A DNA stretch of 44,580 nucleotides from Candidatus Kapaibacterium sp. GTDB lineage: Bacteria; Bacteroidota; Ignavibacteria; Kapaibacteriales; WFXC01. The notes beneath the pieces were generated by a model. It saw only the letters and a list, made by a program, of their open reading frames with translations, did not search any database and was not told the origin of the DNA. The position numbers were made by a program, and so were the translations under genes. The DNA is taken from the NCBI GenBank assembly GCA_027082775.1, contig JALWUI010000159.1, positions 1 to 44,580 on the forward strand, written 5' to 3'. Shown in pieces: positions 14,358 to 42,628 of this stretch (positions are counted from its first letter, which is position 1; each line of letters begins with the position of its first letter).

Positions 14358-14380
14358 GGGAGCGCCGGCTTTAGCCGGCA
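14358..14380 (+). repeat. REP-like palindromic repeat
   Basis: GGGAGCGCCGGCTTTAGCCGGCA; near-identical copies at 20065, 20129 and 40911. Confidence 0.8.
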
Positions 14381-14460
14381 AAAGAAATGTAGGCTGGCAA
14401 TGCGCGGCGGTATATGAAACAGTGTGGTTTCTACTTTTTCTTTCGCATTCCGTGCAGCGC

Positions 14461-14491
14461 TTGACTTTTTGCAAAGTTTTTTGTATATTTG
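14461..14491 (+). promoter_or_regulatory. Promoter of the S8 peptidase cassette
   Basis: TTGACT-N17-TATATTTG fits both sigma70 spacing and the Bacteroidota TAnnTTTG element. Confidence 0.7.
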
Positions 14492-14535
14492 CACTGTTCT
14501 CATCAGCGGTTCGTGGAACAAAAAAGGTGAGAGCG

Positions 14536-16876
14536 ATGAGAAAACTGCGCCTGTTTTTGTTCTTTCTCTTCCTGTTTGGGGGGGGGGGATATAGTTGCCC
14601 AACTCCAGTTACCCGTTTTCCTTGATACCCGTGGAGATACCATTGATTACAATTTTCCGCCACCGGATACGGCTTACGCGCCGGGAAAGCTCATCGTGCG
14701 ATTTTATCCCCACGCTTTGTACCTTGACTCACTGTGTTACGCTTATCCGGCTCCGATCACGGAGGGAGCGCCGGGTGAAGGGGTTTTGATGTTGCCTCCG
14801 TCGCTGCGCCAGCATTTGTTATCGCAGCAGTTTTCCGTTGCTTCCATCATCCGGGATTCGGCACTTCGAGTGACGCTTGAAAATCTGGGGGTTGATTTCC
14901 TGCAGCGAATGACGGTAGCCAACCCGTGTGCTGATACGATTTCCATCACGCGCTACGGTGATACGGTCCGATGCACTGATTACCTGTGGATGGTGATGAA
15001 GTTTCGGAGTGATACCATCGATATCATTGATGCAGCGGATCAGATTTTAAGCAATCACTGGGATGTGGTGGAGATTGTGGAGCCTAATTACTATCTGGAG
15101 CTTTTGGACCGGACACCTTCTCGAGATCCGAATTTCCCCTTGCAGATCAGCCTGCATCGGGAGATGACGGGAGTAACACGGGCGTGGGACTTTGAGGTTG
15201 GAGATTATGCGATCAAAGTCGGGGTCATAGACGATGGGATATGGTATTATCATTGCGATTTGGGTGGTGGTAAGGGATGGGGATACAAGGTTGCTGGTGG
15301 CTGGAATTGGACGGAAGATACGACAGATTTCAGTATAGGTTCCAGTCATGGAACTCCTGTGGCTGGCATTGTTGGGGCGTTGACCAATAGAGGATGTGTG
15401 GAGCAGGGAGTTGCCGGGATTGCTGGTGGATGGGGACCGGATAACAACTATAGCGATGAGGGAATAGGGTGTGCACTATATGGCTTTCGTGTTGCTCATC
15501 CGCAGTGGTCGGGGTATTTATCTCTTGCTTACGCTATTGCTGCTATTCTGGAAGCCAGCAGTCGTAATCCGAACACCGGGTATGGATATGGAGTGCACGT
15601 CATTAATGCCAGTTGGGGAGGTTCATTCTACAGCTTTGCGTTGAGATCCGCGATATTGTATGCATTTGAAAATGGGGTCAGCTTTGTTGCAGCAAGGGGG
15701 AATAGCTATGATGATCGATTGCATTATCCTGCGTGCTACGACGAGTGGTGGGTGTCCAGTGTGGGGGCATCTGATAGGTCCAGGAATCGGATTGATTATT
15801 CTTCGTATGGCAGGGGGATGGATTTCCTGGCTCCGGGAGGATATTATTCAGGTCCGAACGCTATAGTGTACACTACTCAATACGGCGGAGGGTTTGGATA
15901 TTTTGCAGGAACCTCTGCGGCAGCGCCCCACGTCAGTGGTCTGATTGCACTGTTGTGTTCTGAAGCCCGGGAGCACCAGTGGGATCTGGTGGTGGAGGAT
16001 TACGAAGGAATGATTAAGGCTGCTTGTGAAGATAAGTTGTCACGTTTCTATGACGATCAAACTGGATGGGGACATATCCGGGCAGATACGTTGTTTGATA
16101 TGCTCCAGCGAGGATACAGGGTGAGCCATTTCTCTGTTGATTCAGTGGCAATCGACTCTGTTGGAGAATGGAGTCCGACTTTTTTGCTGCTGGTGCTTAA
16201 TGCTGGAGGGCGACCAAAGCCGTTAGCTTCGGGACCTTACCTGGCACAGCGCCGATGGGTCTATGGTACGATTCATTTGCCTCCACATCGGTGGATAGTG
16301 GATAGTGCAAATCCCCTGTTCGTGTGGGGGCGGAGCGGTGAAGGAGCGCCCAGTGGTTGGTCGCTGGCAAATCCGTGCCTTCAAGCTGGTGCGACGTATG
16401 TTCTTTCAGGACGGGGTGGCAACGGGAAGACTGATGGCATCTACCATAGCCATTCCTTCCAGGTTCGGGTTGCCAACCTGCAGTATAAGCTGGTGTCGCT
16501 ATTGAATGGGAGGCGATCGACGCGACCAAAGAAGCTTGGATTCCATATTTCGGTTTTTGGAAGGGAGAAGGTAACCGATGTAGAAGACCGGGATGGACGG
16601 ACCCGGCATACGGCTGAGGGGCGTCGGTGGGCATTCCGGTGTGTGGTGCAGGATCGGAAGCTCAAGGTGTGGGTGAGCTCCTCAGTCCCGGGAAGTGAGG
16701 AAATGACGGTACGGATTTTTGATGCGCAGGGCAAGATGTTGTATGCTGGATCTGGCGTGTTGCGCCGGGGAGGAGAACCGCAGGAGTTTCTGGTTCCCCG
16801 TCTTTCCCGTGGGGTTTATTTTGTCCAACTGCGGATCGGAGCGGATGTGGTCACGCAGCCGGTATTTGTCTGGTAG
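14536..16876 (+). CDS. S8 subtilisin-like peptidase with T9SS-type CTD; frameshifted at a G11 tract in the signal peptide
   Basis: Catalytic triad VGVIDDG / SHGTPVAG / GTSAAAPHVSG. CTD VRIFDAQGKML...LSRGVYFVQL. ATG 14536 (MRKLRLFLFFLFLF) is out of frame with the body unless the tract is G10. Confidence 0.9.
14578..14588 (+). repeat. Poly-G (G11) tract
   Basis: TTT-G11-ATATAG. Confidence 0.95.
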
Positions 16877-17894
16877 CATTGTCTGGATGCTGCTTTTGCT
16901 GCTGAGTGGTGGGTGGGGTGGATGCCAGGATGTTCCCGTGCAGCCGTCCCCGCCGCCGTGTGAATGGAATAATGGATATCGATTTATTGTACCACCATCG
17001 GGACATATTGTCAGAGGAGCATCGCCGGATGGAATGATGGTGGCATATGAGGACGTACGTGATGAAGGTCCTTTACACATTATCGACGTGAGCACTTATG
17101 AAATATACAAGATTGAGCTTCAGCCATATTTGCCAGAGGGAGAGATTTCTGCTGGAGCAGGAAGGATCTTATGGTGTCCGTATGATCACCGGCGCCTGAT
17201 GGTATTGGCCAAGTCGATAGATCAAGAGGGAAGATTCCGTGACTATGCATTTGTGATCGCTCTTTCAGACGGTATGGCGGTTCGAGTGGAGAAGGTGATA
17301 CCGGAAAGTCCGGGGGATCAGGTGTTTCTGCACTGGATGGCGACTTCAAAGCCTGGAGCAGATTACTTTGTGTTGTCAGGAGAGCGGATGTACTGGTTGC
17401 AGCAGGATACGATTTTGCCGCTTCCGGAGAAGTATCGCGGAGAGCCGCAGCGACGGGTATGGAGTCCCGGCGATCAGCACTGGTTTGGTATCGTAGAGGA
17501 TGGGAACGGTCAGCGACGATTTTTGCTGGATGGAGTGGAGATACAATTACCGAGGGAAACTGGTAGGGCAAGCTGGGCACCCAATGGGCGGAGTTTGATT
17601 TTGTCGCTCTATTATAATGATGAGAGTTGGGAGAATAAAGGTCCGGGCATTGACCGATTCTGGGTTATTACGGATGTCAGTCAGGTGTTGAAAAATTCGT
17701 CACCTGAAGTGGAGCCAGATTATGTGATTGATCCATCAGAGCAGTGGTGTATGTATTCGATGGACCCAGTGCCGCGGTTTACCGGTGATACGACCTTTGC
17801 GGTCTCCCTGTTTCCGCCGGGGTTTTTCACCTGTTACATATATGAGGTTTCGGTTGAAGGACGGATTTTGCGGCAGTTAACATTCGAGTTGTGA
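16845..17894 (+). CDS. Lipoprotein with TolB/WD40-like beta-propeller repeats (paralog 1)
   Basis: Lipobox-like WGG-C; SPDG, WSPGD, WAPNG repeats; ends YIYEVSVEGRILRQLT. Start codon uncertain. Confidence 0.7.
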   Translation: MWSRSRYLSGSIVWMLLLLLSGGWGGCQDVPVQPSPPPCEWNNGYRFIVPPSGHIVRGASPDGMMVAYEDVRDEGPLHIIDVSTYEIYKIELQPYLPEGEISAGAGRILWCPYDHRRLMVLAKSIDQEGRFRDYAFVIALSDGMAVRVEKVIPESPGDQVFLHWMATSKPGADYFVLSGERMYWLQQDTILPLPEKYRGEPQRRVWSPGDQHWFGIVEDGNGQRRFLLDGVEIQLPRETGRASWAPNGRSLILSLYYNDESWENKGPGIDRFWVITDVSQVLKNSSPEVEPDYVIDPSEQWCMYSMDPVPRFTGDTTFAVSLFPPGFFTCYIYEVSVEGRILRQLTFEL

Positions 17895-17901
17895 GGGAGC
17901 G

Positions 17902-19065
17902 ATGGGAGTTGGGAAGAGGAGGCAAGGCGGAGCAGAGCGATGGTGGTTTGTGATTGTGGGGCTCATCGGGCTGATGCTCGGAAGTGGGGGGTGTGGGGAG
18001 GTGGTGGCGCCGAGACCGTGCTTTTTCCCGCACAGTCTGGGGGATAAAAATGCGCAGTTTCCGGAAGAGGGATATCATCAGGTGCTGCGGGTGTCGCCGA
18101 AGGAACGACACATAGGGTTTATTGTACGCCGGCAGCAGTTTTATTTTGGAGTCCGGAGTCTGGACCCGGCGAATTTGCAGTGGGACGATGGACGAATGGA
18201 TGCAGCGATTCGAGCACTGGGGTTCGGCATCAGGGATGTGTTGTCAATGCACTGGGCACCGTATTCCGATCGGTATGTCTTGATAGAGGCACAGACAATG
18301 GTGGATACAGGGAGATGGGTGGCATTCGGGCGGAATTATTTTCTGGTGGACCGGCAGCAGGGGAAAGCCTATCGGATAGCACCATCGGGATATAGCACAG
18401 CATTTTCGGTGGATGAAACGCTGCGGTTCTACCGATGGATGGAGCAATCCGAGCCGGGGAAGAATTTTCTGGATGCGGGGGACAAGGGGATGTATTATCT
18501 TGAGGGCGATGAGTTTTTGCCGTTTGAAAATGATCCGGTGGAACGATGGCGGCGGCAGGTGATGGGAGAAGGGAAATGGGAGCGGCGGTGGTGGCAGGAA
18601 GTGTCGCCGGATGGGGAGAAGGTGTTTCTGGCAGTAGAGCTTTCGGGGCGATATGGGGGATATGCGTACTACGTGAACGGCTACCGGTTGTGGTTTGAAC
18701 GTCGGGCGAGGTATCCGATCATCGTCAGGCGGGCACGATGGTCGCCGGATGGGAAGCGGCTGGCACTGGTGGTGATGCCGGTGCCGCCGAGGCTGTTTCC
18801 GCAGATCTGGATCTGGGACGATGTGGATCGGCTGCTTCGGGAGCGGCCGGTGGTGGCAAAGCCGGATCGGGTGGTGGATTTGTGGCAAACGGCGTGCGGG
18901 TATCGGTTTTTGCCGGGCGGGGATTTTCTGAGCAAAGATCGGCTGGTGGTGACGATGGTGCCGCCGAGGGATACATTGCCGTTTGCGTATGGGTATCTGT
19001 ACGAAGTGGATTTGCAGGGACAGATTCTGCGGCAGTTGACGATGACCCCGTTGCCATATAAGTAG
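17902..19065 (+). CDS. Lipoprotein with TolB/WD40-like beta-propeller repeats (paralog 2)
   Basis: SGG-C lipobox; VSPDGEKV, WSPDGKRL; ends YLYEVDLQGQILRQLT. Confidence 0.75.
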   Translation: MGVGKRRQGGAERWWFVIVGLIGLMLGSGGCGEVVAPRPCFFPHSLGDKNAQFPEEGYHQVLRVSPKERHIGFIVRRQQFYFGVRSLDPANLQWDDGRMDAAIRALGFGIRDVLSMHWAPYSDRYVLIEAQTMVDTGRWVAFGRNYFLVDRQQGKAYRIAPSGYSTAFSVDETLRFYRWMEQSEPGKNFLDAGDKGMYYLEGDEFLPFENDPVERWRRQVMGEGKWERRWWQEVSPDGEKVFLAVELSGRYGGYAYYVNGYRLWFERRARYPIIVRRARWSPDGKRLALVVMPVPPRLFPQIWIWDDVDRLLRERPVVAKPDRVVDLWQTACGYRFLPGGDFLSKDRLVVTMVPPRDTLPFAYGYLYEVDLQGQILRQLTMTPLPYK

Positions 19066-19090
19066 CTGTTTCACAAAGAGGAGTGAGGAG

Positions 19091-19852
19091 ATGCAGCGAT
19101 GGTGGATGGTGGTGATCGTGGCAGTTGGGATCATTGGTGGAGGGATGATCGGGGGATGTGAGGATGTGACTGGACCGCGGGAGACATCGTGGATGATGCC
19201 GCTGGATTCGGGGAATTGGTGGGAATACGAATGGGTAGCGGGGAGCCTTGATACCCTGAAGTTTACAAAGCGGGTGCGGATCGAGGTAGCAGGAAGGCGG
19301 AGGGTTGATGGTCGAGCGGCGGCGATGGTGGTGTGGCGGTGGCAGTCGGAAGGTGGGGAGTTTCGGGATACGGTGTTCTGGGAGGAACGGAATGGGCAGT
19401 TGTGGGAGTATAGAAACTGGTGGATTTTGAGATTTTGGGGGATATCCCTTCGGTGGTTACCAGTGGCAGATTTTGGAAAGCCGAGTTGGAGTTATCGTTT
19501 TCAGTTCTCGGGCGCAGATACAGTAGAGTTGGTAGGAATGAAGCTCGTTGCGGACTGGATAGAGTATGGAGCCCGGTATGAAGGACGCCAGACAGTAACT
19601 TTTCTGGATACTTCTGCTGTTGCTTTGCAATATCGTTGTAGTGTGCGAGATCAGTTTTCATCGTATGGCTCAGGAGAGAGAGTGTATCCGGGATGCGAGG
19701 GGCAATGGTTGTGGATCTGGGTTGTTCGAGGGATCGGGATCGTGCAGTTTCAGGTAGCAGATGACTGGTCGTGGGAGTTTATGACCGATTATGAGCCGTG
19801 CGAGCCGAGGGATCCGGTTATGTGGCGCTTGCGGCGGTATTCGATTCGGTAG
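19091..19852 (+). CDS. Hypothetical lipoprotein
   Basis: GAGGAG RBS, IGG-C lipobox, MPLDSGNWWEY N-terminal motif, WVVRGIGIV near the C-terminus. Confidence 0.75.
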   Translation: MQRWWMVVIVAVGIIGGGMIGGCEDVTGPRETSWMMPLDSGNWWEYEWVAGSLDTLKFTKRVRIEVAGRRRVDGRAAAMVVWRWQSEGGEFRDTVFWEERNGQLWEYRNWWILRFWGISLRWLPVADFGKPSWSYRFQFSGADTVELVGMKLVADWIEYGARYEGRQTVTFLDTSAVALQYRCSVRDQFSSYGSGERVYPGCEGQWLWIWVVRGIGIVQFQVADDWSWEFMTDYEPCEPRDPVMWRLRRYSIR

Positions 19853-20064
19853 TGGGAGGTAAGCCGGTGTGAGCAGTGTTGTGATTTGCCCCGTTCGAGC
19901 ATAGCGTTGACCTTTGGGTGTTGGAGCGCAAACCTGCTGCGTTTGATACTGCACTACGGGTTTGCCAGGCTGAAATCTTCAGGTGCTGTGAGGCAGTTCT
20001 GCTTTGAGGGAATTCCTTTCTTTACAGCACAGCGGAATATCCGTTGTTGCGGAAGTGCCGAGGT

Positions 20065-20215
20065 GGGAGCGCCGGCTTTCGCCGGCAGAGGTTGCACGCA
20101 GAAGCGTGCGCTCCCAGTAAACCCCACAGGGAACGCCGGCTTCAGCCGGCAAACGGTGGAACAAGGCTGCGGGTTGTCCTGCTGAAGGGAGTTGCGCACT
20201 GGAGCGTGCGTTCCC
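20065..20215. repeat. BIME-like array of four REP-like units in alternating orientation
   Basis: 20065-20087(+), 20093-20115(-), 20129-20151(+), 20193-20215(-). Each is GGGARCGC plus a hairpin. Confidence 0.8.
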
Positions 20216-20304
20216 GGTGGGTATGCCGTGGATCAGGGAGCAACATTATGGGGGAAAGAGCGTTAAACAGGCTGGAAAGGTAAAGAAAACAGGAGCGATA
20301 CTGA

Positions 20305-21852
20305 ATGCACTGGCAGCGATGGATGTGGCGTAGTGCCCTGTGGATCATTTTCGTTTCCCTGGCGTGGGGCATTGACCCGATTCCACCAGCGTTGTTCAAA
20401 CCAGTGACACCAGAGCGGGCAAAGAAGCATTTGCAGTTTTTGGCTTCAGATGAGCTTCAGGGACGGTCGACTCTGCGCCCGACTATCTGGATTGCGGCGC
20501 GCTACATTGCTGAACAATTTCGCCGTTTTGGACTGGAGCCGTTTCGCGATACCAGCTACTTTCACCTGTACGAACTTCGTCGTCGGTATTTGGCTTCCGT
20601 TCCGATACTGTACGTTCACCACCGTAGTGGAAAAACCGATACGCTTGCCGCCGGTCGGAACTGGCGTCCGTACTATTTCACCGCTGCGATAGCAGTGGAT
20701 TCCCTGCCGGTGGTGTTCGCTGGTTATGGAGTGTCGCTGCCCGATAGTGCCTATGATGATTATGCGCATCTGGACGTGCGGGGGAAAGCGGTGCTGGTGC
20801 TGGATGGATTGCCGGCGCCGTTGCGGCAGCGGATGAGCCGGCGAGAACAGCGACGGTATGGGGTGCGGTATAAGGCGGAGCTGGCAGCGCAATTGGGGGC
20901 AAAAGCCCTGCTGGTCGTTCGGATTCGCCGAGGGCGGGTGCGGTTAGGGGGATTTCCGTGGCCCCTGCTAAGCCATCGCATTTCCCGCCGGGCAGTACCA
21001 GCCGTTCCAGCAATGAGCATTTCACCGATCATCGTTGTCAGCTTTGGCAAAAAAGCAGCGGAAGCCGTCGTTGGCAGCCTGGATTCCTTGAGAAGCTGGC
21101 AGCGTCGAATCGATTCTACTGGAGTGCCATACACGACCACTTTCAACGGCGTCTGGCTTTCCCTGTCGGTCAGGGATACGGTGGAAAAAATTGTTGTGCC
21201 GAACGTTGTTGGTGTCCTGCGAGGAACGCTTCGTCCTGAGGAATACGTGATCGTCGGTGCACACTACGACCACATTGGAACAGGGGGGACCAAAGCAGAT
21301 ACGATCTACAATGGAGCGGATGATAATGCTTCGGGAACCACTGGGTTGCTGTTGTTAGCAGAAGCGTTTGCACAGGTCAAACACCCACCGCTGCGCAGTA
21401 TCCTGTTTGTCGCCTTTAGCGGTGAAGAGATGGGCTTGCTGGGCTCGAGAGCGTTTGTCAACGACTCCACCGTCCCCGTTGATCGGATTGTTGCGATGCT
21501 GAATATGGATATGATTTCGCGCAACCATCCGGATACCCTGCACGTGGGCGGTGTAGATCTTGCGCCGACGTTGCAAAAGATACTGGAGACAGAAAATCAG
21601 CATCTGACTCGCCCCTTTGTGCTGCTTTACGATATCGATGCGTTTATGGGACGCAGCGATCAGGCGAATTTCATCGAGAAAAACATTCCTTCGTTGTTTT
21701 TCTTTACCGGACTCCACGAGGATTACCATCAGGTCGATGATGAGGTGGACAAAGTGAATTTTGAGAAATTGGCTCACGTGGCGCGCCTGGTGGGGCGAGT
21801 GCTGTGGCAAATTGTTCACAATGCAGCGCCCATTCCATTTGGTGGGCAGTAG
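20305..21852 (+). CDS. M28-family aminopeptidase with PA domain
   Basis: LASDELQGR, VVFAGYG, GAHYDH, NGADDNASG, GEEMGLLGS, NMDMI, RSDQ, HEDYHQVDD. Confidence 0.93.
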   Translation: MHWQRWMWRSALWIIFVSLAWGIDPIPPALFKPVTPERAKKHLQFLASDELQGRSTLRPTIWIAARYIAEQFRRFGLEPFRDTSYFHLYELRRRYLASVPILYVHHRSGKTDTLAAGRNWRPYYFTAAIAVDSLPVVFAGYGVSLPDSAYDDYAHLDVRGKAVLVLDGLPAPLRQRMSRREQRRYGVRYKAELAAQLGAKALLVVRIRRGRVRLGGFPWPLLSHRISRRAVPAVPAMSISPIIVVSFGKKAAEAVVGSLDSLRSWQRRIDSTGVPYTTTFNGVWLSLSVRDTVEKIVVPNVVGVLRGTLRPEEYVIVGAHYDHIGTGGTKADTIYNGADDNASGTTGLLLLAEAFAQVKHPPLRSILFVAFSGEEMGLLGSRAFVNDSTVPVDRIVAMLNMDMISRNHPDTLHVGGVDLAPTLQKILETENQHLTRPFVLLYDIDAFMGRSDQANFIEKNIPSLFFFTGLHEDYHQVDDEVDKVNFEKLAHVARLVGRVLWQIVHNAAPIPFGGQ

Positions 21853-21966
21853 GGTATTTAAACTTTTTCGGGCTGAATAAGAGTCTAATAGTAACGCTTT
21901 CAGAAAATTGGGGATTACTCCTGGTGATTTCGGGTTTTGTTCAACAAACAAATGGAGCGTAGCGCG

Positions 21967-22707
21967 ATGAAAAGGTACAGGAAATGGGTATTCGCCGTTT
22001 TTAGCATCCTGGCTTTGTTAGTGTGGGGTGGGATTACCAGTTGTGATCGCCTGCCGACGCAGCCTCAGCAGACGTTCGTGGGAGATGAAGAAATCGCTAA
22101 TGTTGTCGTTGAAGATTGGGAGATCCCAAATCCTGAGGTCAAGGTGGATCTTGCCAGAGGCGATGGTTCCATCCTGCATCATCCTCGATATGTTCCTTTT
22201 CGTCTGGGATGTATTCTCCGGAAATTGCACCTGACGCGTGAGCAATGGGATTCGGTCAAAACGTATTTGCGCGAATATCGCGCCTGCACCTGGGAAGTAC
22301 GCGATTCCGTGCGGCGAGCAGCGCGTCCGATTCTGGAAGAATATCGCCAGCAACTCCGGGAAATTCTCCAGCAATACCGCAATGGCGAAATTAATCGGGA
22401 TTCGCTGTTTGCCCTGATTCGAGAGTTGCGCCAATCGCTGGTTGAAGCTTTCTCAGATCTGCGGCAGTGGGCACGTCAGCAGATGGAAAATTGCAAGGAA
22501 GTGCTCTTTGAAAAGATTCGGTCGATTCTTACCGATGAGCAGAAGGAAATCTGGGATGAGTGGGTGGATAACGGCGGCAGTTGCGGCGATCACTGGCGCC
22601 GATGGCGGCGGGATCACGGTCGATGGGGACACGGCGGCGACCATGGTCGGTGGGATCGTGATCGGGACCACGGTCGGCACGGTGGACACTGGCGTCGCGG
22701 CGGATAA
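21967..22707 (+). CDS. Lipoprotein with a Spy/CpxP-like helical region and a His/Gly/Arg/Trp-rich tail
   Basis: ITS-C lipobox, LHLTREQ and ILTDEQ motifs, repeated DHGR. Confidence 0.7.
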   Translation: MKRYRKWVFAVFSILALLVWGGITSCDRLPTQPQQTFVGDEEIANVVVEDWEIPNPEVKVDLARGDGSILHHPRYVPFRLGCILRKLHLTREQWDSVKTYLREYRACTWEVRDSVRRAARPILEEYRQQLREILQQYRNGEINRDSLFALIRELRQSLVEAFSDLRQWARQQMENCKEVLFEKIRSILTDEQKEIWDEWVDNGGSCGDHWRRWRRDHGRWGHGGDHGRWDRDRDHGRHGGHWRRGG

Positions 22708-22773: not shown

Positions 22774-22780
22774 GTTTCCA

Positions 22781-33781: not shown

Positions 33782-35440
33782 ATGATGAAGAGGATTTTTT
33801 GCTTTATTTCAGTGCTTGGCATTTGGATGGGAGTGCTTCGAGCACAGGTACTGGACATTGCCGATGCGCGGCAGCAGCCGCCCGGCAGTGTGGTAACCGT
33901 CAGTGGGGTTGTGACCGTCGCGCAGCAATTTGGGAATCCCGCTTTTATCCAGGATCGGACTGCGGGCATTGCTGTTTATGACTTTGATTTTATCCAGCAG
34001 GTGCAGATTGGAGATTCCGTGGTAGTGCGAGGCACGCTGTCGGAGTTTGGGCAGCAGAATGGGCAGCCGGGAAGTGGATTGTTGGAGTTAACCGATGTGA
34101 CCCTGATGCAGAAAGTGTCCGGAGCGCGGATTGATACGCTTGCAGTATCGCTCGCGGCCATTGATGAAACGATCGAAGGACGATTGGTGCGCATTGATTC
34201 GGTCTTCTGGACGCTGTTGCGGGACGATTTTTTCCCTGCGGAATCGCGCAATTATGGGATTTTTGATCCAACGGGAGCGGGCGAAATTCGGGTGGATAAC
34301 AATACGGAGCTGGGAGGAAAACGGATTCCCCACACACCCTTCGATTTGATTGGCGTAGTGTCGCAGTATCGAGGGCAGTATCAGATTATGCCACGATTTG
34401 TAACCGATTTGCAGCCGCTTCCGCCGCGGCAGGCAGTGCCTGATTCCCAGCGGTTGACACTGGTGACCTGGAATTTGGAATGGTTTGGAGATCCCAATCG
34501 AGAACCATCGGATGATGCTGCCCAGTTTGCGGGTGTCTATGCGCTGATTGACAGTGTGAATGCGGATATTTACCTGCTGCAGGAAGTTGCAAACCCGACG
34601 GTATTTCAGCAGTTGGCGGATTCGCTGGCGCGCTATGACGGGTATCTGGCGCCGTACGATCAGGAGCTGCGCACGGGGTATCTGGTAAAGCGGTCGGAAA
34701 TTACAGTGCTGGACACGAATCTGCTTTTTACCGCGGCACCATCTGACGCCTGGGCGTGGGGACGGTATCCGTTCCATCTGGTGTTCCGCTGGCGGGGAGT
34801 CCGGCTGCACGTGCTCAATCTCCATATGAAGTCGGGAACCAATCTGGAGGATCAGCAGTTGCGGTGGCGGGATGCGATGATTCTGTACAATGGACTCTCC
34901 AGCCGGTGGAGCGATTCGTTGCTCATTGTTGGCGGCGACTGGAACGATGATTTCGACGAAAGTATTGTGCCGGGAGTACCATCGCCGTACGAAGCATTCG
35001 TTGCTGATTCAGGGAATTTCATCGTGCCGGATTACTGGTTGAGTGTGCGGGGCGTTGGCACCCATCGAGGAGGCTCGTTTCTGGATCATTTTGTGATGAT
35101 GGGAGTGATGCGGACTTTGCCAATTCAGTGGCAGGCAGGAGTTGTGCTGCCATCTTCTGTGGAACGGAACTTTGCAACGGTTTCGGATCATCTCCCTTTG
35201 CAACTGGAGCTGGTGTGGCAACCATCGACGGTTATCCCGGAGTGGGAAGCGGCGAAAATCCGGGTTCTCCATAAACAGCTTCTGCTGGAGCGTCCAGCAA
35301 CGATCCGGATTTATACGTTATGGGGACAGCACATTGGCACGTGGCGGCGGGTTTATCGGGTCGATCTCTCATTTTTGCCCCCGCAACCGGTCGTGTATGT
35401 GCTCAATGGGCGTCAGCGGGGGATTCTGATGGTACGGTAG
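33782..35440 (+). CDS. Secreted EEP (endonuclease/exonuclease/phosphatase) protein with N-terminal OB-folds
   Basis: Signal peptide LRA-Q; OB-fold VTVSGVVT...FIQDRTAGI; EEP motifs TWNLEWF, LQEV, NLHMKS, GGDWND, LDHF, SDHLP. TATTTTTG promoter element at 33738. Confidence 0.87.
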   Translation: MMKRIFCFISVLGIWMGVLRAQVLDIADARQQPPGSVVTVSGVVTVAQQFGNPAFIQDRTAGIAVYDFDFIQQVQIGDSVVVRGTLSEFGQQNGQPGSGLLELTDVTLMQKVSGARIDTLAVSLAAIDETIEGRLVRIDSVFWTLLRDDFFPAESRNYGIFDPTGAGEIRVDNNTELGGKRIPHTPFDLIGVVSQYRGQYQIMPRFVTDLQPLPPRQAVPDSQRLTLVTWNLEWFGDPNREPSDDAAQFAGVYALIDSVNADIYLLQEVANPTVFQQLADSLARYDGYLAPYDQELRTGYLVKRSEITVLDTNLLFTAAPSDAWAWGRYPFHLVFRWRGVRLHVLNLHMKSGTNLEDQQLRWRDAMILYNGLSSRWSDSLLIVGGDWNDDFDESIVPGVPSPYEAFVADSGNFIVPDYWLSVRGVGTHRGGSFLDHFVMMGVMRTLPIQWQAGVVLPSSVERNFATVSDHLPLQLELVWQPSTVIPEWEAAKIRVLHKQLLLERPATIRIYTLWGQHIGTWRRVYRVDLSFLPPQPVVYVLNGRQRGILMVR

Positions 35441-37313
35441 ATGTTCCACGTGGAACATTGCGGAGGTAGAGTGCCAGGATGGAAAGATCCGCAGCCGTCA
35501 CGCCAGCAATGCGCGAAGCCTGTCCCAGCGAATGTGGTCGGATCTTTGCCAGCTTTTCCCGGGCTTCGGTCGAGAGCGAAGGAATAGCGGCATAGTCGAT
35601 GTCCGGCGGAATCCGTTTTTCCTCCATCGCCCGCAGCCGCTCCACTTCCCGACGCTGCCGCTCGATGTACCCCGCATATTTGATTTCCAGTTCTACCTGT
35701 TCCCGAACGGCTGCTGGAAGGGAGGTGAGATCCCAGCCAAGCGCTGTCAACAGTTCCTCCAGTGTTACTTTGCCCCGCCGCAACAGCTTTTCCAGTGACG
35801 TGGCTTCCGTAATGGGAGCTTCGCCAATAGCGGTCAGATAGGCGTTGATAGCGTCGGGCGTTGCTTTCGTTGTTTGAAGCTGCTGGTGGAGTTGCGCGAT
35901 GGCTGCTTCTTTGGCAAGCAGTTGTTCGTACAATTCTGGTTCAATCAATCCTAATTCGTAGCCATAACGCAGCAGGCGTCGGTCTGCATTGTCCTGCCGC
36001 AGCAGCAGTCGATATTCTGCCCGCGAAGTGAACATTCGGTACGGTTCGTCGACGTCTTTGTTGATGAGATCGTCGATCAAAACGCCAATGTAGGCTTCCG
36101 ATCGCTGGAGTTTGAATTCGCCCTCACCACGTACCAGCAGTGCCGCATTGATTCCGGCAATGAGTCCCTGGGCAGCGGCTTCTTCATATCCCGACGTTCC
36201 GTTGATCTGTCCAGCGAAAAACAGCCCCCGGATTGCTTTGGTTTCCAGGGTAAAGTGGAGCTGGTAGGGGTAGAAAAAGTCGTACTCGACGGCGTAGCCG
36301 TAGCGGAGAATGCGGGCGTTTTCCATACCGGGAATGGTGCGCAGCGCCCGCTCCTGAATATCCCGCGGTAAGCTGGTGGAGAATCCGTTGACATACACCG
36401 AGTTTGTGCCCAAGCCTTCGGGTTCGAGCACGATCCGATGCGATTCTTTGTCTGCGAATCGGTACACTTTATCTTCGACCGAAGGGCAGTACCGCGGACC
36501 TCGCCCCGTGATCTTGCCCGTGAACATCGGGGAGCGATCGAAGCCTTCCGCGATAATTTCGTGTGTTTCTGCGGTCGTGCGGGTCATATAACAGAGAATC
36601 TTGTTTTCGACGGATTGGGTACGCAAAGAAAATGGCTGGGGAGGCTCATCCCCGGGATGGATTTCCATCTTGCGGAGATCGAGTGTTTCCAGAGCAACCC
36701 GTGGTGGCGTACCGGTTTTGAGCCGTCCGCGCTGGAGACCGTAACTTTCCAGCAGATCCGAGATTTTGGTGGCACTCTTTTCACCAAAGCGTCCTCCGGT
36801 TGTCGCTTCCAGTCCGGTGTACATTACTCCGTTGAGGAAGGTTCCGCCACACAGCACGACGGCTGTGGTTTTGAGCTGTTCGCGGTCGTCCAGGAGCACT
36901 CCAACGACCCGATCGTTGCGGACCAGAATTTCCGTCACCGTACCCTCAATCAGGGTTAAGCTGGGCAGGGATTGGAGCAGTTGTCGAGCGAACAGCGGAT
37001 AGAGAGCTTTATCATTTTGCGACCGGGGCGACCACACGGCAGGACCGCGGGAGCGGTTCAGGAGTTTGAACTGAATGCCGCTCCGGTCTGCTAAGACACC
37101 CATCACGCCGCCCAGGGCATCAATTTCTTTCACCAGATGCCCTTTTGCTGTTCCGCCAACGGCAGGATTACACGAAAGCCGTCCAATGGTGTCAAGGGAC
37201 ATCGTCACCAGCGCAACACGGCATCCCATCCGGGCAGCCGCCGCTGCTGCTTCGATGCCAGCGTGCCCACCGCCGATGACAATGACATCGTATGTATCCG
37301 ATCGATTGCGCAT
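35403..37313 (-). CDS. mnmG: tRNA U34 carboxymethylaminomethylation enzyme MnmG (GidA)
   Basis: GGGHAGIEAA, SCNPAVGG, RLKTGTPPR, GPRYCPSVEDK, AGQINGTSGYEEAAAQG. Confidence 0.98.
   Translation of the reverse strand: MRNRSDTYDVIVIGGGHAGIEAAAAAARMGCRVALVTMSLDTIGRLSCNPAVGGTAKGHLVKEIDALGGVMGVLADRSGIQFKLLNRSRGPAVWSPRSQNDKALYPLFARQLLQSLPSLTLIEGTVTEILVRNDRVVGVLLDDREQLKTTAVVLCGGTFLNGVMYTGLEATTGGRFGEKSATKISDLLESYGLQRGRLKTGTPPRVALETLDLRKMEIHPGDEPPQPFSLRTQSVENKILCYMTRTTAETHEIIAEGFDRSPMFTGKITGRGPRYCPSVEDKVYRFADKESHRIVLEPEGLGTNSVYVNGFSTSLPRDIQERALRTIPGMENARILRYGYAVEYDFFYPYQLHFTLETKAIRGLFFAGQINGTSGYEEAAAQGLIAGINAALLVRGEGEFKLQRSEAYIGVLIDDLINKDVDEPYRMFTSRAEYRLLLRQDNADRRLLRYGYELGLIEPELYEQLLAKEAAIAQLHQQLQTTKATPDAINAYLTAIGEAPITEATSLEKLLRRGKVTLEELLTALGWDLTSLPAAVREQVELEIKYAGYIERQRREVERLRAMEEKRIPPDIDYAAIPSLSTEAREKLAKIRPHSLGQASRIAGVTAADLSILALYLRNVPRGTSTVPSESPADAH
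35442..35457. promoter_or_regulatory. parS site (inside the mnmG 3' end)
   Basis: Perfect palindrome TGTTCCACGTGGAACA matching the TGTTNCACGTGNAACA consensus. Confidence 0.88.
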
Positions 37314-37329
37314 TGTTCCACGTGGAACA
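37314..37329. promoter_or_regulatory. parS site (abutting the mnmG start codon)
   Basis: Identical TGTTCCACGTGGAACA, filling 16 of the 18 bp between the GNAT gene and mnmG. Confidence 0.88.
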
Positions 37330-37331
37330 CT

Positions 37332-37880
37332 TTATGGTTTGAGAAACTTCACGTACAGGACGTAGTCTTCATACACATCGTCATCCAGCTTCACAGCCCG
37401 TGGTTCAGTTCCATACTGCTGGAAATCCCATCGCTGGTACAATCGACGTAAAGGGACGTTCGAGCTTGCAACCGCAGTGTGAAGCTGCTCGATAGCAGGG
37501 AGCTCAGCCCGTATCAGCTCAAACAGCGTGCGCAGCAGTTGATGAGCAATTCCCAGGCGACGAAACGTTGGATCCGTATACACCCAATCGATCGCGCCAC
37601 GGTGGTGCACTCGATGGTTGTTCGCCGGTTCGGATCGGAACCGGAGCATCGAAACCAGCTCGTTTTCGAAAAAGGCGCCCAGCAGGAAAGAAGCTGGAAA
37701 GCGGAGCAGCCGATGAAATGGCTCAGGCGAATGGCGGAATTGCTCGACGAAATACGGCAGATCGAATGGAAAGGCTTCCGGATGTTCTCGCAGCGCCTGT
37801 TCCATCAGGCGTAAGTACTCAAAGCGGTCGGTGTTGCGCAGAGGACGAATGGTAATGATGTCGAAAATGGAACGATGCAT
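37332..37880 (-). CDS. GNAT-family N-acetyltransferase
   Basis: VYTDPTFRRLGIAHQLL acetyl-CoA motif, N...LYQRWDF...GTEPRA. Confidence 0.88.
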   Translation of the reverse strand: MHRSIFDIITIRPLRNTDRFEYLRLMEQALREHPEAFPFDLPYFVEQFRHSPEPFHRLLRFPASFLLGAFFENELVSMLRFRSEPANNHRVHHRGAIDWVYTDPTFRRLGIAHQLLRTLFELIRAELPAIEQLHTAVASSNVPLRRLYQRWDFQQYGTEPRAVKLDDDVYEDYVLYVKFLKP

Positions 37881-37889
37881 TTCTGATGC

Positions 37890-39263
37890 TCATTTGCCAA
37901 TACAAAACCGTGAAAAAATGGCTTGCAGCACTTCGTCTGTATAAACTTCGCCAGTGATCTTGCCGATGGCGTTCAGCGCTTCGCGCACCTCAACAGCGAC
38001 AAATTCATTGGACAGACCGGCACGGAGTGCGTCGATTGCCGCTGCTAAGGAACGAGCAGCCGCAGCTAACAACGTTGCCTGACGTTCATTGATCAGGCCA
38101 TCGGTGACGCGCTGACTGTCCTCTTTTGCAATCGTTGCCAGTGTGCGCTTGAGCTGGCCAAGCCCTTCCCCCGTTCTGGCAGAAATGCCAAGGGTCTGAA
38201 CCGATCCGTTCGAGGGAAATGCTGAAGGAGGATCCGGGATCAGGTCCAGCTTGTTGTGGACCAGTAAATACCGCGACTGCGGATAGCGTTGCTGCAGCGC
38301 GGCAAGTAAAGAGTTTGAGTGATCAAATCCCAGCGAGGCATCGTTAAGGACCAGGACCAGATTAGACTGTTGCAAGATCGAGTGTGCCAGCTCGATCCCT
38401 TCCAGCTCAATGCGATCCGCCGGTTTGTCACGAAGACCGGCGGTGTCTACCAGTTTAATGCTCATTCCGTCCAGAAACAGCACTTCTTCAATGTAGTCGC
38501 GAGTGGTGCCCGGCAGGTCGCTGACAATTGCCCGCTGCTTGCCCAAAAGCGCATTCAGCAGAGAAGATTTTCCCGCATTGGGATATCCTACGATACCCAC
38601 AACATATCCCCCACGGAGAATTTCTGCTGCAACGACGCTATCAGCTAATTCGGAGCAAATGTGGTGAACTGCTTTTAATTGCTGGATCACGGTTTCACGG
38701 TCGATCAGCTCAATGTCTTCCTCTGCAAAGTCCAGCTCCAATTCTAATAGACCAGCGATGTCAATCAGTTGTTGCCGCAACTGTTGCAGCCGACGGGTCA
38801 GCCCACCAACCAGTTGCCGGGCGGCTGCCTGTGCGCCCGGAATGGTCTGAGCGTGGATTAAGTCGGCGACTGCTTCAACCTGCGTCAGATCCAGCTTGCC
38901 ATTGAGAAATGCCCGCTTGGTGAATTCTCCCGGCTCTGCGTGGCGAGCGCCAGCCGTGATCAGTGCGTTGAGAATCTGTTGCGTGACCAGCGGTCCCCCG
39001 TGGCAGCCAAATTCCACCACATCTTCGCCGGTGTACGAATGAGGAGCGCGGAACACTGAAGCCGTGACCGTATCAATGAGCTGCGGACCGTCGTAGAACT
39101 TCCCATAGTGAATGGTGTGGGTGGGCACTGTTGCCAGCGCCGCTTTGCCACGGAAGCAGCGATCGGCAATGATGAAAGCATCCGGTCCTGAGAGCCGGAC
39201 AATTGCAATACCCCCAATGCCGGGTGGCGTTGCCACTGCGCAAATAGTGTCTTTGCTGATCAT
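37890..39263 (-). CDS. mnmE: tRNA modification GTPase MnmE (TrmE)
   Basis: DTICAVATP, SYTGED, GYPNAGKSS, GTTRD, DTAG, NKLD, C-terminal FCIGK. Confidence 0.98.
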   Translation of the reverse strand: MISKDTICAVATPPGIGGIAIVRLSGPDAFIIADRCFRGKAALATVPTHTIHYGKFYDGPQLIDTVTASVFRAPHSYTGEDVVEFGCHGGPLVTQQILNALITAGARHAEPGEFTKRAFLNGKLDLTQVEAVADLIHAQTIPGAQAAARQLVGGLTRRLQQLRQQLIDIAGLLELELDFAEEDIELIDRETVIQQLKAVHHICSELADSVVAAEILRGGYVVGIVGYPNAGKSSLLNALLGKQRAIVSDLPGTTRDYIEEVLFLDGMSIKLVDTAGLRDKPADRIELEGIELAHSILQQSNLVLVLNDASLGFDHSNSLLAALQQRYPQSRYLLVHNKLDLIPDPPSAFPSNGSVQTLGISARTGEGLGQLKRTLATIAKEDSQRVTDGLINERQATLLAAAARSLAAAIDALRAGLSNEFVAVEVREALNAIGKITGEVYTDEVLQAIFSRFCIGK

Positions 39264-39337
39264 CTACAGACGTGCTTCGATGAAACTTCCTCCTGCTGTG
39301 TAAACCACTTATTGACGAACAATCAGCACGAAAAGCG

Positions 39338-39961
39338 TTACTCTCTTGAAAAATATCTTTCCCGGAAAGCTACAGCGGTCGGACGTTGTCGCAAGAGTTG
39401 TTTCCGTATGATCCTTTTGAGGTCGATAGCGAAATCCGCCAGAGATCGGAAAGGGCGAAACGACAGGTGGTGTTCCCGCAGCAGTGCTTCCAGATCCCCG
39501 CGAGCGTAAATAAGATCGGCGCATTCGTAGAGGACAAAAGCTGAGGAATGAGCAGAGACCAGTACCATCGTTGTATTCGCAGTCAGCAGGCTCAGGCACG
39601 AATGCAGCAACGGTGCGGCAGCGTCATTGCCAAGAGAGGCGCTATCGAGTATCCACAGATGGTCGCCGGCGATGCCCACCCGATGCAGAAGTTCCGCCAT
39701 CGGCGAGGCAGGATACCGGGAGAAGAAACAGAGGGAAAGCGGAAAAGTTTCCGTCAACCGGCAAACCGGAAAAACGCCAGTGTCGATCTGGAGGATCCGG
39801 TATCGTTCTTCCGTCTCGGAGGCAGCGGTGTGAAGCGAACGGAGAAAGGATGGAGGAATGTCGGGAAGCTGGAAAACCGTCGACTCCAGTTGGCAGAAGA
39901 TAAGGGTGGAGCGCAGGTGCAGCAGGGTTGATGTGAGATTGCCAGAATGAATAATCCTCAT
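39338..39961 (-). CDS. Hypothetical protein
   Basis: About 207-aa ORF co-oriented upstream of mnmE; no motif recognised; start uncertain. Confidence 0.4.
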   Translation of the reverse strand: MRIIHSGNLTSTLLHLRSTLIFCQLESTVFQLPDIPPSFLRSLHTAASETEERYRILQIDTGVFPVCRLTETFPLSLCFFSRYPASPMAELLHRVGIAGDHLWILDSASLGNDAAAPLLHSCLSLLTANTTMVLVSAHSSAFVLYECADLIYARGDLEALLREHHLSFRPFRSLADFAIDLKRIIRKQLLRQRPTAVAFRERYFSRE

Positions 39962-40605
39962 CGGAAATGGATCTTTTGCCTTACGCGGCAGGTTGTACGA
40001 GTGGCGCTGAGCTTCATTGTGGTGAATGCGGAATCTCAAAGCGTTGCGTTCCAAGGAAGGCGCTCGAATCCATTCGGGTTGACCACATTGCTGATAAGAA
40101 TGAGCGGAAACGGCGCGCTTTGTGAGGTTGAACAGTGACCAGAGCGCCTGCTATTGGTATTCCTAACAGTGGGAGAACAGGAGGGCTCTTCGGGGCAATG
40201 CTTTAGCAAAGGCATTGGCAGGAGAAGGGGCAGGAGGCGACGCGCGGTGTGCAGGCTCAGGGGTCGGACTGGTGGCGCCAGAGCACTCAGGGATATGCTG
40301 AATACGCTGGGCTGGATTGTCATCGGGATTTTCCGTATATTTGCAAAATAAAAAGAGGTGACCGGGGGCACGGTCACCTCTTTGCTTGTGGTGAGTTCCA
40401 GGGCGCACTGGCTGCAGGGACGGCTAATTTCCCTCCTGACACAGGGGCGCTGAGGGCATCGGGGTGAAGCGCTGTGCAGAGGGCTCTATGTTGAGAGCGT
40501 TGGCTGCCATTAATCCGTTGCCGTTGCATTCCTTTGTTTTCTGTTCCTTACCGCTCTTGCCATTCATATATCAAACACTGTGCCAAAGGGAAATTACCCT
40601 GCTTG

Positions 40606-40694
40606 CTATCGCCTTTCAAGGGTTATTGTCGGCAAATCCGATGCTCCTATAACCCACATTTCTCGCAAGAGAACAATCGTTCAAACGGCGTTGT
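40606..40694 (-). pseudogene. Possible decayed TnpB (IS200/IS605/IS607) zinc-ribbon remnant
   Basis: TTPFERLFSCEKCGL*EHR, then DLPTITLE after a frameshift. Resembles the TnpB C-terminal pattern R.F.C..CG...DRD.NAA.NL. Confidence 0.3.
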
Positions 40695-40737
40695 GTTACA
40701 CTATGGTGTCAGGTTCCGTTGGCAGCGTCAGGGAAAA

Positions 40738-40993
40738 TGCACACCTCAGAGTGTGCATTCCCAGCACGATATGGAGGGGCACAACGCCGCTTCGCCCACG
40801 GACGACCCGCCGATGCGATGCAGTGTGAGCGGAGGAGCCGATCTGGAATCTGTTTCGCAAATACGTGATGGTAGGGGGCAGACCGATGTGTCTGCCCTAT
40901 GTCAGATGCAGGAAGCGCCGGCTTTAGCCAGCAAAGAAAGTGCACCCTAAGGGGGTGCGTTTCCGGTGAATGCACACTGAAGTGTGCGCTCCC
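40738..40993. repeat. REP cluster: GGGARCGC-type units plus one GTAG-type REP
   Basis: 40738-40762(-), GTAGGGGGCAGACCGATGTGTCTGCCCT 40871-40898, 40911-40933(+), 40941-40964(-), 40971-40993(-). Confidence 0.75.
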
Positions 40994-41021
40994 GGATCCT
41001 CTCCAATCCACATTTTCGGTC

Positions 41022-41052
41022 TTGCCTGTGTCCGGAATTTTTTGTATATTTG
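41022..41052 (+). promoter_or_regulatory. Promoter of the second secreted-protein cassette
   Basis: TTGCCT-N17-TATATTTG; shares TTTTTTGTATATTTG with the promoter at 14477-14491. Confidence 0.7.
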
Positions 41053-41096
41053 TCCCATCCTTGAAAAGTCTGTTTCACAAATTCTGGAATCCTAAA

Positions 41097-42628
41097 ATGA
41101 TGAAACCGAAAACATTTTCTGCAAATCGTGTGTGTGTGTGTACACACTCCTGTTTCTGATGACCCTCCCGCTGGCAGCGCAGGGATTGTATGTCTGGAAA
41201 CTGCAACTGTATTGGGGGAAGGATTCCACATACGATTTTGATTTGCGGACACCGGCTATCCAGCGATCTGTTGTCGTAGGTATCAATCGCTTTCCGCTCA
41301 AAGGGAGACACGAGGTACACATTGGGGAAGCTGATGGAGGAGGTGGATATGATCAATTTATCCGATTCCGGGACGTAGGCGATCAGCACCTGGAAGGCAG
41401 GAGTGTGGTTCGAACGATTGATGGCATTGGGTATCTTGTAGCAGGGGTACGCTATACGACTGGTTCGCCAGACTCAGTGATGTTTTTATTCCGATGGGAC
41501 ACCAGCCATACGAACGTATGGGCACAACAGGTGCGGTTAGCAGATCCCTATGGTTTGCCGTATGAGACCGTAATGCCTACGAAGGTGATCAATTACCGGG
41601 GGCTGTATTATCTGGTTGGCGGTTATGGACGGATAGGCGGTCGTCAGGATGCGTTTTTGCTGAAGGTCGATGATCAGGGAGCAATTGGATGGGTGATGAT
41701 TTACCGGGATGTTGCAACACCGGATCACGACAAATCGCCGTTGTGGTTATGGGATTTGGAAGCAGCGCAGAGCAGTGGGGAAGTGGTGCTGGTCGGATCG
41801 CGGGTGACACTGTTTCGGAATGCGCTGCCGGATGTGGGATGTTTGAATGAGCGGCAGCAGGCGTGGATGGTGGTAGTTGATGGGAATAATGGGACGTTGC
41901 TGAGCAATGGGATCTATGCGGAGTACAAGGATCAGTGTACAGAGTTAAAGAAGGTGCGCGTCGCAGAGGAGATGGCAACGGGGAAGCAGTATGTATTGAG
42001 CTGTGGGTGGGGGACACATCGGATACCGGGGACCAGTGCGACGATTACACCGTTGACCTACAATGGGGAGTTAGGGAACTTAGCAGGGGGAAATTTGCAG
42101 TTTCAGATGACGCTGGTGGGGATGGGCGGCAATCCGGCGTATGAGCAATTTCGGGATCTGGAATACTGGATGGTACAGGACACGGTGCAGGATATGCTGG
42201 CGTATGTGGGGAGTGTTCGTGACAGCAGTTGGTACACGCCTGTGGGGCAGTGCTGGGACGGGTTCTGGTGGAAAGCAGGGAAAGAGATACACGTGATGCA
42301 GGGATTTTACTATGGTTGGGGGCAACCGCAGCCATATCGGTTGCGGCATATGGAGAAAGTTGAAGCGGATTCAGCATTGTATTTGTTGGGGTATGATGTA
42401 GCGATCTCGCGGGCAGTGTTATGGAAGACAGAGGGGAGGGTCTTTCGACCCAAAGGGGAAGTAGTGCAAGAGTGTCGAACGGAGGTTGCAGGGGCACCGG
42501 ATCGACCGTTTGGGTTGTATCAGGAGTCGATGGAAGCATTGCCGGGGAGCGTGATCGTCGATCCGTTGCAGGTGGAGCTTCTGGATAAGTGGGGATTTGG
42601 AATAGAGTGTTCTGGTACCCTGGATTGA
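41097..42628 (+). CDS. Secreted beta-propeller-like protein; frameshifted at (GT)7 in the signal peptide
   Basis: MMKPKTFSANR joins VCVYTLLFLMTLPLAA-Q only with (GT)6. Body has blade-like repeats (YLVAG, YYLVGG, DAFLLKVDDQG, VVLVGS). Confidence 0.75.
41128..41141 (+). repeat. (GT)7 dinucleotide repeat
   Basis: AATC-GTGTGTGTGTGTGT-ACAC. Confidence 0.95.

Follow-up and report, generated by a model that had tools for sequence, protein, structure and literature searches.

Two cassettes for predicted secreted proteins

The stretch of DNA analysed here (the window) is the entire contig C159 (44,580 bases; JALWUI010000159.1) of a Candidatus Kapaibacterium sp. genome, G000, a metagenome bin of 215 contigs and 2,744,381 bases (2.74 Mb) with 52% G+C. 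The sequencing runs that contain this DNA are labelled hydrothermal vent metagenome. The window holds two cassettes encoding predicted secreted proteins, and in each of them a simple sequence repeat (SSR), G11 in one and (GT)7 in the other, interrupts the first gene within its signal peptide; the two repeat sites lie 26.5 kb apart. A sequence-only reading of the window had proposed that these repeats are slipped-strand ON/OFF switches of surface proteins in an environmental lineage of the Fibrobacteres-Chlorobi-Bacteroidetes (FCB) group, both captured in the OFF state. Two sister-species bins of the same genus, G001 and G002, which are records separate from G000, were used for comparison.

The first cassette (all features are on the forward strand unless stated otherwise) opens with a repetitive extragenic palindromic (REP) unit, GGGAGCGCCGGCTTTAGCCGGCA (14358..14380), an exact match to the REP pattern and the left boundary of homology with G001 and G002, which starts at window position 14356. 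A promoter of the Bacteroidota type, read directly as TTGACT (14461-14466)-N17-TATATTTG (14484-14491), occupies 14461..14491. The start codon, n-region and h-region of the predicted signal peptide, MRKLRLFLFFLFLF, follow at 14536..14577, and behind them lies the G11 tract (14578..14588), the putative switch and the longest G/C run in the genome. The subtilase (S8) open reading frame (ORF) of 766 codons (14576..16876) is in the +1 frame with respect to ATG 14536, so that the frame from this ATG is broken by G11 and stops at 14623-14625; tract lengths of 7, 10 or 13 would put the ATG in frame. The ORF listing gives TTG 14576, beside the G tract, as the first start of the S8 ORF. Its product matches PF00082 with 116.6 bits (cut-off 21.8) over profile positions 3-288 of 288, and it carries a candidate type IX secretion system (T9SS) sorting domain at the C-terminus, which scored 23.0 bits with TIGR04183, just at the cut-off of 23, and 18.3 bits with Pfam PF18962, against a cut-off of 27. 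Contig C104 of G000 encodes an intact S8 paralogue without tract that begins MMRSRVYGFLLHLFVVGAIIAQPP and shows TTTTTTGCATATTTG at the equivalent promoter position, and because of this paralogue we regard ATG 14536 and the S8 leader as real. In G001 and G002 the leader is the same but for one R-to-K change.

The second cassette is bounded on its left by a composite REP of three hairpins and about 83 nt (40911..40993), where homology to contig C131 of G002 starts at 40908. Its first hairpin is the REP unit GGAAGCGCCGGCTTTAGCCAGCA (40911..40933, pattern match), and the composite folds with -41.2 kcal/mol (z = -3.1 on the plus strand and z = -5.25 on the minus strand). The promoter, TTGCCT (41022-41027)-N17-TATATTTG (41045-41052), spans 41022..41052 and is part of a module found throughout a gene family described below. 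The start codon and n-region of the family signal peptide, MMKPKTFSANR (41097..41127), are recognised by the geometry of an ATG, 31 nt and a tract, here the (GT)7 at 41128..41141, a putative switch for which n = 6 or n = 9 would restore the frame. As it stands, the frame from ATG 41097 stops after 20 codons. The ORF behind the tract (494 codons, 41144..42628) begins with the h-region TLLFLMTLPLAA, followed by Q; it matched no Pfam family and is predicted to encode an orphan secreted beta-propeller protein. Its first start in the ORF listing is GTG 41132, inside the (GT)7. The second gene of this cassette (42674..44578) encodes a large IgGFc_binding-domain protein (PF17517, E = 4e-30) with its own predicted signal peptide; its start reads MKKVVVIAMIWSLQWAGSWGQ, and its 3' end runs off the contig. 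The same gene pair is also present on contigs C90 and C50 of G000.

The start codons originally proposed had to be corrected slightly, to ATG 14536 and ATG 41097. The remainder of that claim stood, i.e., G11 and (GT)7 each break the signal-peptide frame, and each is one unit away from an intact pre-protein with a predicted A|Q junction. Both window genes are captured OFF in this assembly.

Leader repeats and their variation among genomes

The G11 tract is the sole G/C run longer than 8 nt in the 2,744,381 bases of G000, the next being seven 8-mers. Dinucleotide repeats of at least 7 units occur at five places, namely (GT)7 on C159, (GT)13 on C90 (at 1421), (AC)12 on C50 (at 3226), (AC)11 on C196 (at 1036) and (TC)14 on C82, and all five sit between a charged n-region with a conserved ATG and the h-region of a signal peptide. 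G000 has, therefore, six repeat-bearing genes, two in the window and four elsewhere, and the genome-wide scan agrees with the idea of repeats concentrated in signal-peptide regions, since this is where G11 and 5/5 long dinucleotide repeats are found. Among the shorter G/C runs of 7-8 nt, 47 of 54 fall within unbroken ORFs, which argues that the assembly is not generally frameshifted at homopolymers.

Counted as distinct places in the match table, tracts of (GT)>=7 number 4 in G000, 9 in G001 and 10 in G002; in the 38 other genomes of the order there is a single tract in 5 and none in 33. Poly-G of at least 9 nt was considered as a trait of the genus and rejected, since it is found in 35/41 genomes of the order, some of it at contig ends. 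Poly-G/C is also found in three other families of the order, no further than 6-13 codons into ORFs whose N-termini are hydrophobic: G10 at G025:C2:~281527 (L055), C10 at G031:C44:~11180 (L064) and C9 at G008:C1:~72333 (L057). These are 3 of 12 loci sampled in 12 genomes, each one base off frame by reading. The longest A/T homopolymer of G000, an A13 (C87:6290-6302), stands directly after TTTG in promoter-like AT-rich DNA and could be a promoter-spacer repeat; it is 6 bases from the contig end, and the downstream gene is unassembled.

The (GT)n genes form a family of 23 loci, with 4 in G000, 9 in G001, at least 9 in G002 and 1 on a metagenome contig of the Joint Genome Institute (JGI). All 23 loci have 31 nt between ATG and tract and contain the promoter-leader module, with n from 5 to 16. 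Five of the 21 scorable loci are ON and 16 are OFF (7 in phase +1 and 9 in phase +2), an ON fraction that fits a random phase (P(<=5 | 21, 1/3) = 0.25). The ON alleles read as complete leaders, e.g., MTKAKTFSANRVCVCVCVYTLLLAMTLPALAQ, and the in-frame allele on G001:C45 has the leader MTKAKTFSANRVCVCVYTLLFAMTLPLLAQ in a gene of 516 codons. The approximately 220 bases from REP to tract of the window recur on C90, C196 and C50 with 94.9%, 81.7% and 79.3% identity, respectively. The promoter-leader module is 79-95% identical among the four G000 copies; the protein bodies of these copies share just 39-47% identity.

A profile search of 5.77 billion proteins returned 5 clusters of the family, in a scan that took one genome from each prokaryote species the two sister bins were the sole hits, and a metagenome scan with a 25-nt leader pattern added a single contig, that of JGI. 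Judging from these searches, the (GT)n family is genus-restricted and very narrow. An AlphaFold model built from 11 sequences (pLDDT 63, pTM 0.73) is all-beta over residues ~50-310, and the best PDB matches in a fold search were generic beta-propellers (CylK, E = 9e-7, TMq 0.45); with TMq <=0.45 throughout, the propeller matches are too generic to assign a function. Many family copies lie at contig ends, and in public records the family proteins begin at the tract or behind it and are 489-507 aa long.

Truncated family copies were observed in G000 (C54:~870-1041, C67:~6403-6518 and C57:~960-1066, minus strand) and also on G002:C125 and G002:C34. They have the same promoter, with a -7 box 1 nt shorter (TTTTTTGTAATTTG), and a short ORF beginning MTAVFTSWMKDF that corresponds to the C-terminal ~90 residues of the beta-propeller protein, with neither leader nor repeat. 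In two places (G001:C11:47059-50353 and G002:C20:1-2858) mutS has a locus of the (GT)n family as a neighbour no more than ~3 kb away, which may be a coincidence.

A third type of locus, (TC)n, is found on C82 of G000 (3522-4746, locus L042), where ATG 3522 is followed by (TC)14 at 3563-3590 and an ORF of 384 codons; this allele is OFF. The T9SS tail of its product is sub-threshold (TIGR04183, 21.2 bits, cut-off 23). The orthologue on G001:C16 (L047) has (TC)13 and is ON. The homologue on G002:C64 (L048) has (AC)11 at the equivalent place, in frame by hand count, suggesting that the repeat motif was replaced or gained independently.

The predicted leaders of the window (14589-14600 and 41178-41183), C82 and C104 all end in A|Q, with signal-peptidase I junctions read as ...DIVA|Q, ...LPLAA|Q, ...TVEA|Q and ...AIIA|Q. 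They fit the Q-rule of Bacteroidetes, according to which glutamine directly follows the signal-peptidase I site (PMC5837995, PMC10653852). Since parts of the FCB group depart from this rule (PMC5837995), the fit of these predicted junctions in Kapabacteria may be of interest.

The comparison of related genomes came out as the slippage proposal implied, i.e., tract lengths differ at conserved flanks. All tract lengths come from assembled contigs, which give one length per contig and drop minor variants. Orthologue flanks are 91-99% identical while the tract lengths differ: the (GT)7 of the window is (GT)8 in G002 with flanks 98.7% identical, and the (GT)13 of C90 is (GT)12 in G002 with 96.3% identity over 2,051 aligned bases, where indels are confined to the tract and to two positions within REP units. 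The tract of the S8 gene is G11 in G000, G11 in G001 and G9 in G002. The comparison across runs covered the site of this G tract; the 12 runs found were all in the form of Logan contigs, and contigs with less than 31 nt on one side of the tract were treated as weak (X5, 19 nt; X6, 15 nt). The run holding 100% of the stretch gave G11 on an independent Logan contig of 4,472 nt (depth 16.8), a divergent strain in run X3 gave G14 (depth 116), and the contig of run X6 hints at G12, weakly, with its 15 nt on one side and a depth of 4.1.

The reading frames behind the tracts are well conserved. For the S8 ORF, dN/dS is 0.157-0.199 at dS 0.27-0.58, with 637 codons open in all three genomes, and in run X3 the other indels and replaced segments within this ORF all net to multiples of three. 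Orthologue pairs of the (GT)n family gave dN/dS of 0.111 (both OFF), 0.208 (OFF vs ON) and 0.213 (12 differences only). No internal stops were found in any species in the ORFs behind the tracts (494-766 codons). Judged by these ratios (0.11-0.21), purifying selection acts on the ORFs behind the tracts, suggesting that the proteins are made often enough to be exposed to it.

REP units and cassette movement

The sequence-only reading had seen in the two cassettes a shared architecture of REP, promoter and repeat-bearing signal peptide. Its elements are real, since a REP precedes each cassette (14358-14380 and 40911-40933) and direct reading confirmed the TTG(A/C)CT-N17-TATATTTG promoters with 15 identical bases, but the part formed by REP and promoter proved to be generic. 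The REP pattern has four matches in the window (14358, 40911, 20065 and 20129) vs 0.00 expected from 100 shuffles, and in the whole genome the family counts 276 core sites, grouped into 132 clusters, the stem varying in a compensatory manner (GCCGGC/GCCGAC..GTCGGC). They are short imperfect palindromes with many copies in intergenic DNA, as befits REPs, and the three-hairpin unit of ~83 nt recurs on dozens of contigs. Rfam had no family for the REP or the leaders, its sole match in the window being a tRNA gene (3206-3278, minus strand). Of 3054 crude ORFs, only 83 (2.7%) have a REP within 300 bp upstream. No REP precedes the (TC)n locus or the S8 paralogue, and the number of copies upstream of the S8 gene is 1, 1 and 5 in the genomes compared. 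The REP was accordingly rejected as a specific part of the switch, given the 276 sites, its lack at the (TC)n locus and its varying copy number upstream of S8.

Both window promoters have in common the 15-mer TTTTTTGTATATTTG, of which there are just 6 copies in the genome; apart from a copy on contig C170, the other five are all at loci that carry a repeat. The 11-mer of the -7 box, TTGTATATTTG, has 16 genome copies, including sites upstream of a tRNA gene and of unrelated genes, and it fits what we take to be the TTG...TAnnTTTG promoter type of Bacteroidota. With REPs spread over the genome and a -7 box of general use, the REP-promoter part is therefore not specific to the switched genes. The leader mRNAs fold no better than shuffled sequences (z = 0.10 and -0.07), which leaves a switch based on RNA structure unsupported.

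What the REPs do mark exactly is the extent of homology, which between genomes begins at them (window 14356 and 40908), and we read them as recombination boundaries, not as regulators. The S8 block, running from the REP to a REP pair (14356-20119, 5.76 kb), is colinear with G001:C15, 87.8% identical over 5791 nt. Behind the S8 gene, the remainder of this block (16845..20119) contains three ORFs, one lipoprotein-like from 16845 and two at 17902-19065 and 19091-19852, none of which matched a family above cut-off in the profile search. The right boundary is the pair of REP units at 20065..20151 (pattern matches at 20065 and 20129), where homology to G001 ends at 20119. On the same G001 contig, 57 kb from the S8 block, the outer flanks of the window are found ~68 bp apart round a REP-like remnant (G001:C15:102267-102336; L071 3781-3850), i.e., an empty site. 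One site in G002 contains the REPs together with gene 2 but lacks the S8 gene.

Similar rearrangements involve the (GT)n cassettes. On G002:C131, a cassette of the window type is joined to a flank that in G000 carries a truncated family copy (C67:6400-6560), and on G002:C34:1-620 the flank of the window type carries a truncated family copy. The comparison of window 40908-44580 with G002 has therefore the appearance of a reciprocal exchange between two chromosomal sites, although a chimeric assembly at the shared module is possible. The JGI contig is itself a mosaic of a leader of the window type and a body of the C50 type. These REP-bounded rearrangements suggest that cassettes have been exchanged between sites, with the caveat that in metagenome bins joins at repeated modules can be chimeric.

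Probable phase variation, its alternatives and known systems

We consider that these are probably SSR contingency loci, i.e., that the genes undergo classical slipped-strand phase variation within a cleaved leader. A gene of this kind would be transcribed from the near-consensus Bacteroidota promoter and translated from the conserved ATG through a short, positively charged n-region; the ribosome would then cross the G(n), (GT)n or (TC)n tract before reaching the hydrophobic core of the Sec signal peptide and a cleavage site of the A|Q type. Slipped-strand mispairing during replication would add or remove repeat units. One length in three would bring the ATG and the long ORF into a single frame (ON), whereas in either of the remaining phases translation would stop after 16-48 codons, leaving the protein absent or devoid of an export signal (OFF). 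The tract would encode Gly, Val-Cys or Ser-Leu, and because it lies in the leader that is cleaved off, changes in length would cost the mature protein nothing. The cassettes, in turn, may be reshuffled between chromosomal sites by recombination at the REPs and at the shared promoter-leader module. A change of one unit shifts the frame in G11, (GT)7 and (TC)14 alike, with one length in three in frame, the tracts are polymorphic between conserved flanks, and the genes appear to be kept functional despite OFF alleles. The original proposal of an ON/OFF switch in an environmental FCB lineage is thus supported by tract polymorphism, by the existence of ON and OFF alleles and by purifying selection. 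The switch would act on the level of proteins that are probably surface-located, with phage or attachment as the candidate selective agent.

Several observations weigh against this reading. All six repeat loci of G000 are OFF. The G tract lengths (11, 11, 9 and 14) include none in frame, which, if four of these observations are independent, has a probability of (2/3)^4 = 0.2 and is not significant. Rapid reversible switching is the defining behaviour of contingency loci, and such switching within a population or lineage would here have to be deduced from the lengths found in contigs, where consensus assembly of mixed metagenome populations may misstate exact tract lengths. The signal peptides were recognised by eye and by comparison with a paralogue. 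Moreover, in Helicobacter hypermutability can be attributed to missing mismatch repair; this cause was rejected here, since MutS1 (MutS_I) and MutL (MutL_C) were matched in 3/3 genomes. Finally, every (GT)n tract contains an in-frame GTG and the G tract has TTG 14576 beside it, so that a leaderless-like product without the n-region is possible in the OFF phases.

This last point leads to the possibility that the repeat toggles localisation rather than synthesis, with translation in the OFF phases starting at the internal GTG or TTG and yielding a cytoplasmic or poorly exported protein without charged n-region (for S8, without any signal peptide). GTG 41132 in the tract and TTG 14576 beside the G tract are indeed the first starts of the long ORFs, and the public gene callers place the starts of the family proteins at the tract (489-507 aa). 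An S8 protease with a T9SS sorting domain, however, has no obvious intracellular role, and the ATG, the n-region and the 31-nt spacing are kept at 23/23 loci, a conservation from which we argue that the ATG is the functional start; a localisation toggle is accordingly improbable. Not much better are the prospects of an account in which the tracts are expression attenuators and some of the messages regain the frame through slippage of RNA polymerase on G11 or through ribosomal frameshifting, and we hold it unlikely as well. RNA polymerase is well known to slip on long homopolymers, and this account would suit a G tract seen only at out-of-frame lengths (11, 11, 9 and 14) in front of a strongly conserved S8 ORF. 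Were it true, OFF alleles would give a steady low level of secreted protein and the DNA length would matter little. It leaves the dinucleotide loci unexplained, however, as we know of no comparable slippage at dinucleotide repeats; in-frame (GT)n and (TC)n alleles exist, and the lengths are spread over all three phases, which fits mutation at the DNA level.

Sequencing or assembly artefacts, with true lengths in frame (G10 and (GT)6) and ordinary genes behind them, would be conceivable for error-prone long homopolymers and microsatellites in a metagenome bin of 215 contigs with many copies at contig ends. Against this, a second assembler also gives G11 from the source run, 47/54 shorter G/C runs show no frame break, and three separately recorded bins plus the JGI contig share one architecture, at lengths that differ and include ON as well as OFF alleles; we therefore give an artefact very little credence. 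Least credible of all is that these are decaying pseudogenes, permanently inactivated by frameshifts at mutation-prone repeats. The out-of-frame state of 6/6 G000 loci and the truncated copies without leader and propeller on C54, C67 and C57 would be in line with decay, but the low dN/dS (0.11-0.21) together with ORFs open over 494-766 codons excludes simple pseudogenes, and indels elsewhere keep the frame while the tracts stay long and pure.

The complete genomic signature of multi-locus phase variation is present in this environmental lineage of the Bacteroidota: repeats are enriched in leaders, paralogues have one switch module in common, alleles are found both ON and OFF, and the genes behind the tracts show purifying selection. 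We find it reasonably likely that this non-pathogenic vent bacterium runs full multi-locus phase variation, with four repeat types, six switched genes in G000 and at least 10 (GT)n loci in each of the two sister species, plus a second layer in which REP-bounded cassettes and modules are exchanged between expression sites. The driver of surface variation at vents is presumably phage or predator pressure, or the choice of attachment in biofilms. The poly-G/C leader tracts in other families of the order hint that the strategy is ancient in Kapabacteria. One practical consequence is that gene callers systematically mis-start or split repeat-switched genes. Our search found no literature report for Kapabacteria or vent bacteria, judged partly on titles and abstract openings. 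Lineage and habitat are new, as are the gene family, whose members have a promoter-leader-repeat module in common, and its coupling with the exchange of REP-bounded cassettes.

The mechanism itself is already known, because the closest systems are the CT-repeat outer membrane proteins (OMPs) of Helicobacter pylori, the opa genes of Neisseria and the poly-G phasomes. The opa genes have CTCTT pentamer repeats in the region coding for the signal peptide and encode beta-barrel adhesins in a human-adapted Proteobacterium. As predicted or seen in the present loci, the repeat lies in the cleaved leader, the paralogues combine a conserved 5' region with diverse bodies, and most copies are OFF; the pentamer unit, the human-adapted host and the beta-barrel adhesins set opa apart. 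The coding-region G tract as a frame switch and the several loci per genome are also found in the poly-G phasomes of Campylobacter and Neisseria. In H. pylori, CT repeats in the 5' coding region switch the OMP genes sabA, oipA/hopH, hopZ and babA ON and OFF by slipped-strand mispairing (PMC3960876). These genes resemble the loci described here in forming a paralogous surface family (here, a predicted one) with a dinucleotide repeat near the start and alleles that recombine between loci. Unlike the H. pylori OMPs, to which they are unrelated, the proteins here are an S8/T9SS protease and an orphan beta-propeller with its IgGFc-binding-domain partner. The repeat units, GT, TC, AC and G, also differ, and the host is an uncultured vent member of the Bacteroidota with MutS and MutL whose switching is predicted from sequence.

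SSR-controlled phase variation and multi-locus repertoires have been reviewed and, according to that review, genomes with many phase-variable loci appear restricted to pathogens, database bias being asked about as an explanation (PMC11868660). In contrast to the pathogen phasomes treated there, the present lineage is environmental, and the question of pathogen restriction or database bias becomes testable on existing vent metagenomes. The same review describes the invertible promoters of Bacteroides, which belong to the same phylum and likewise produce stochastic ON/OFF states of surface structures, but by site-specific inversion through invertases and not by repeat slippage (PMC11868660). A phylum known for inversion-based switching would, then, also use repeat slippage, and if our reading is true, these loci are a free-living counterpart of the surface-variation machinery of Neisseria and Helicobacter.

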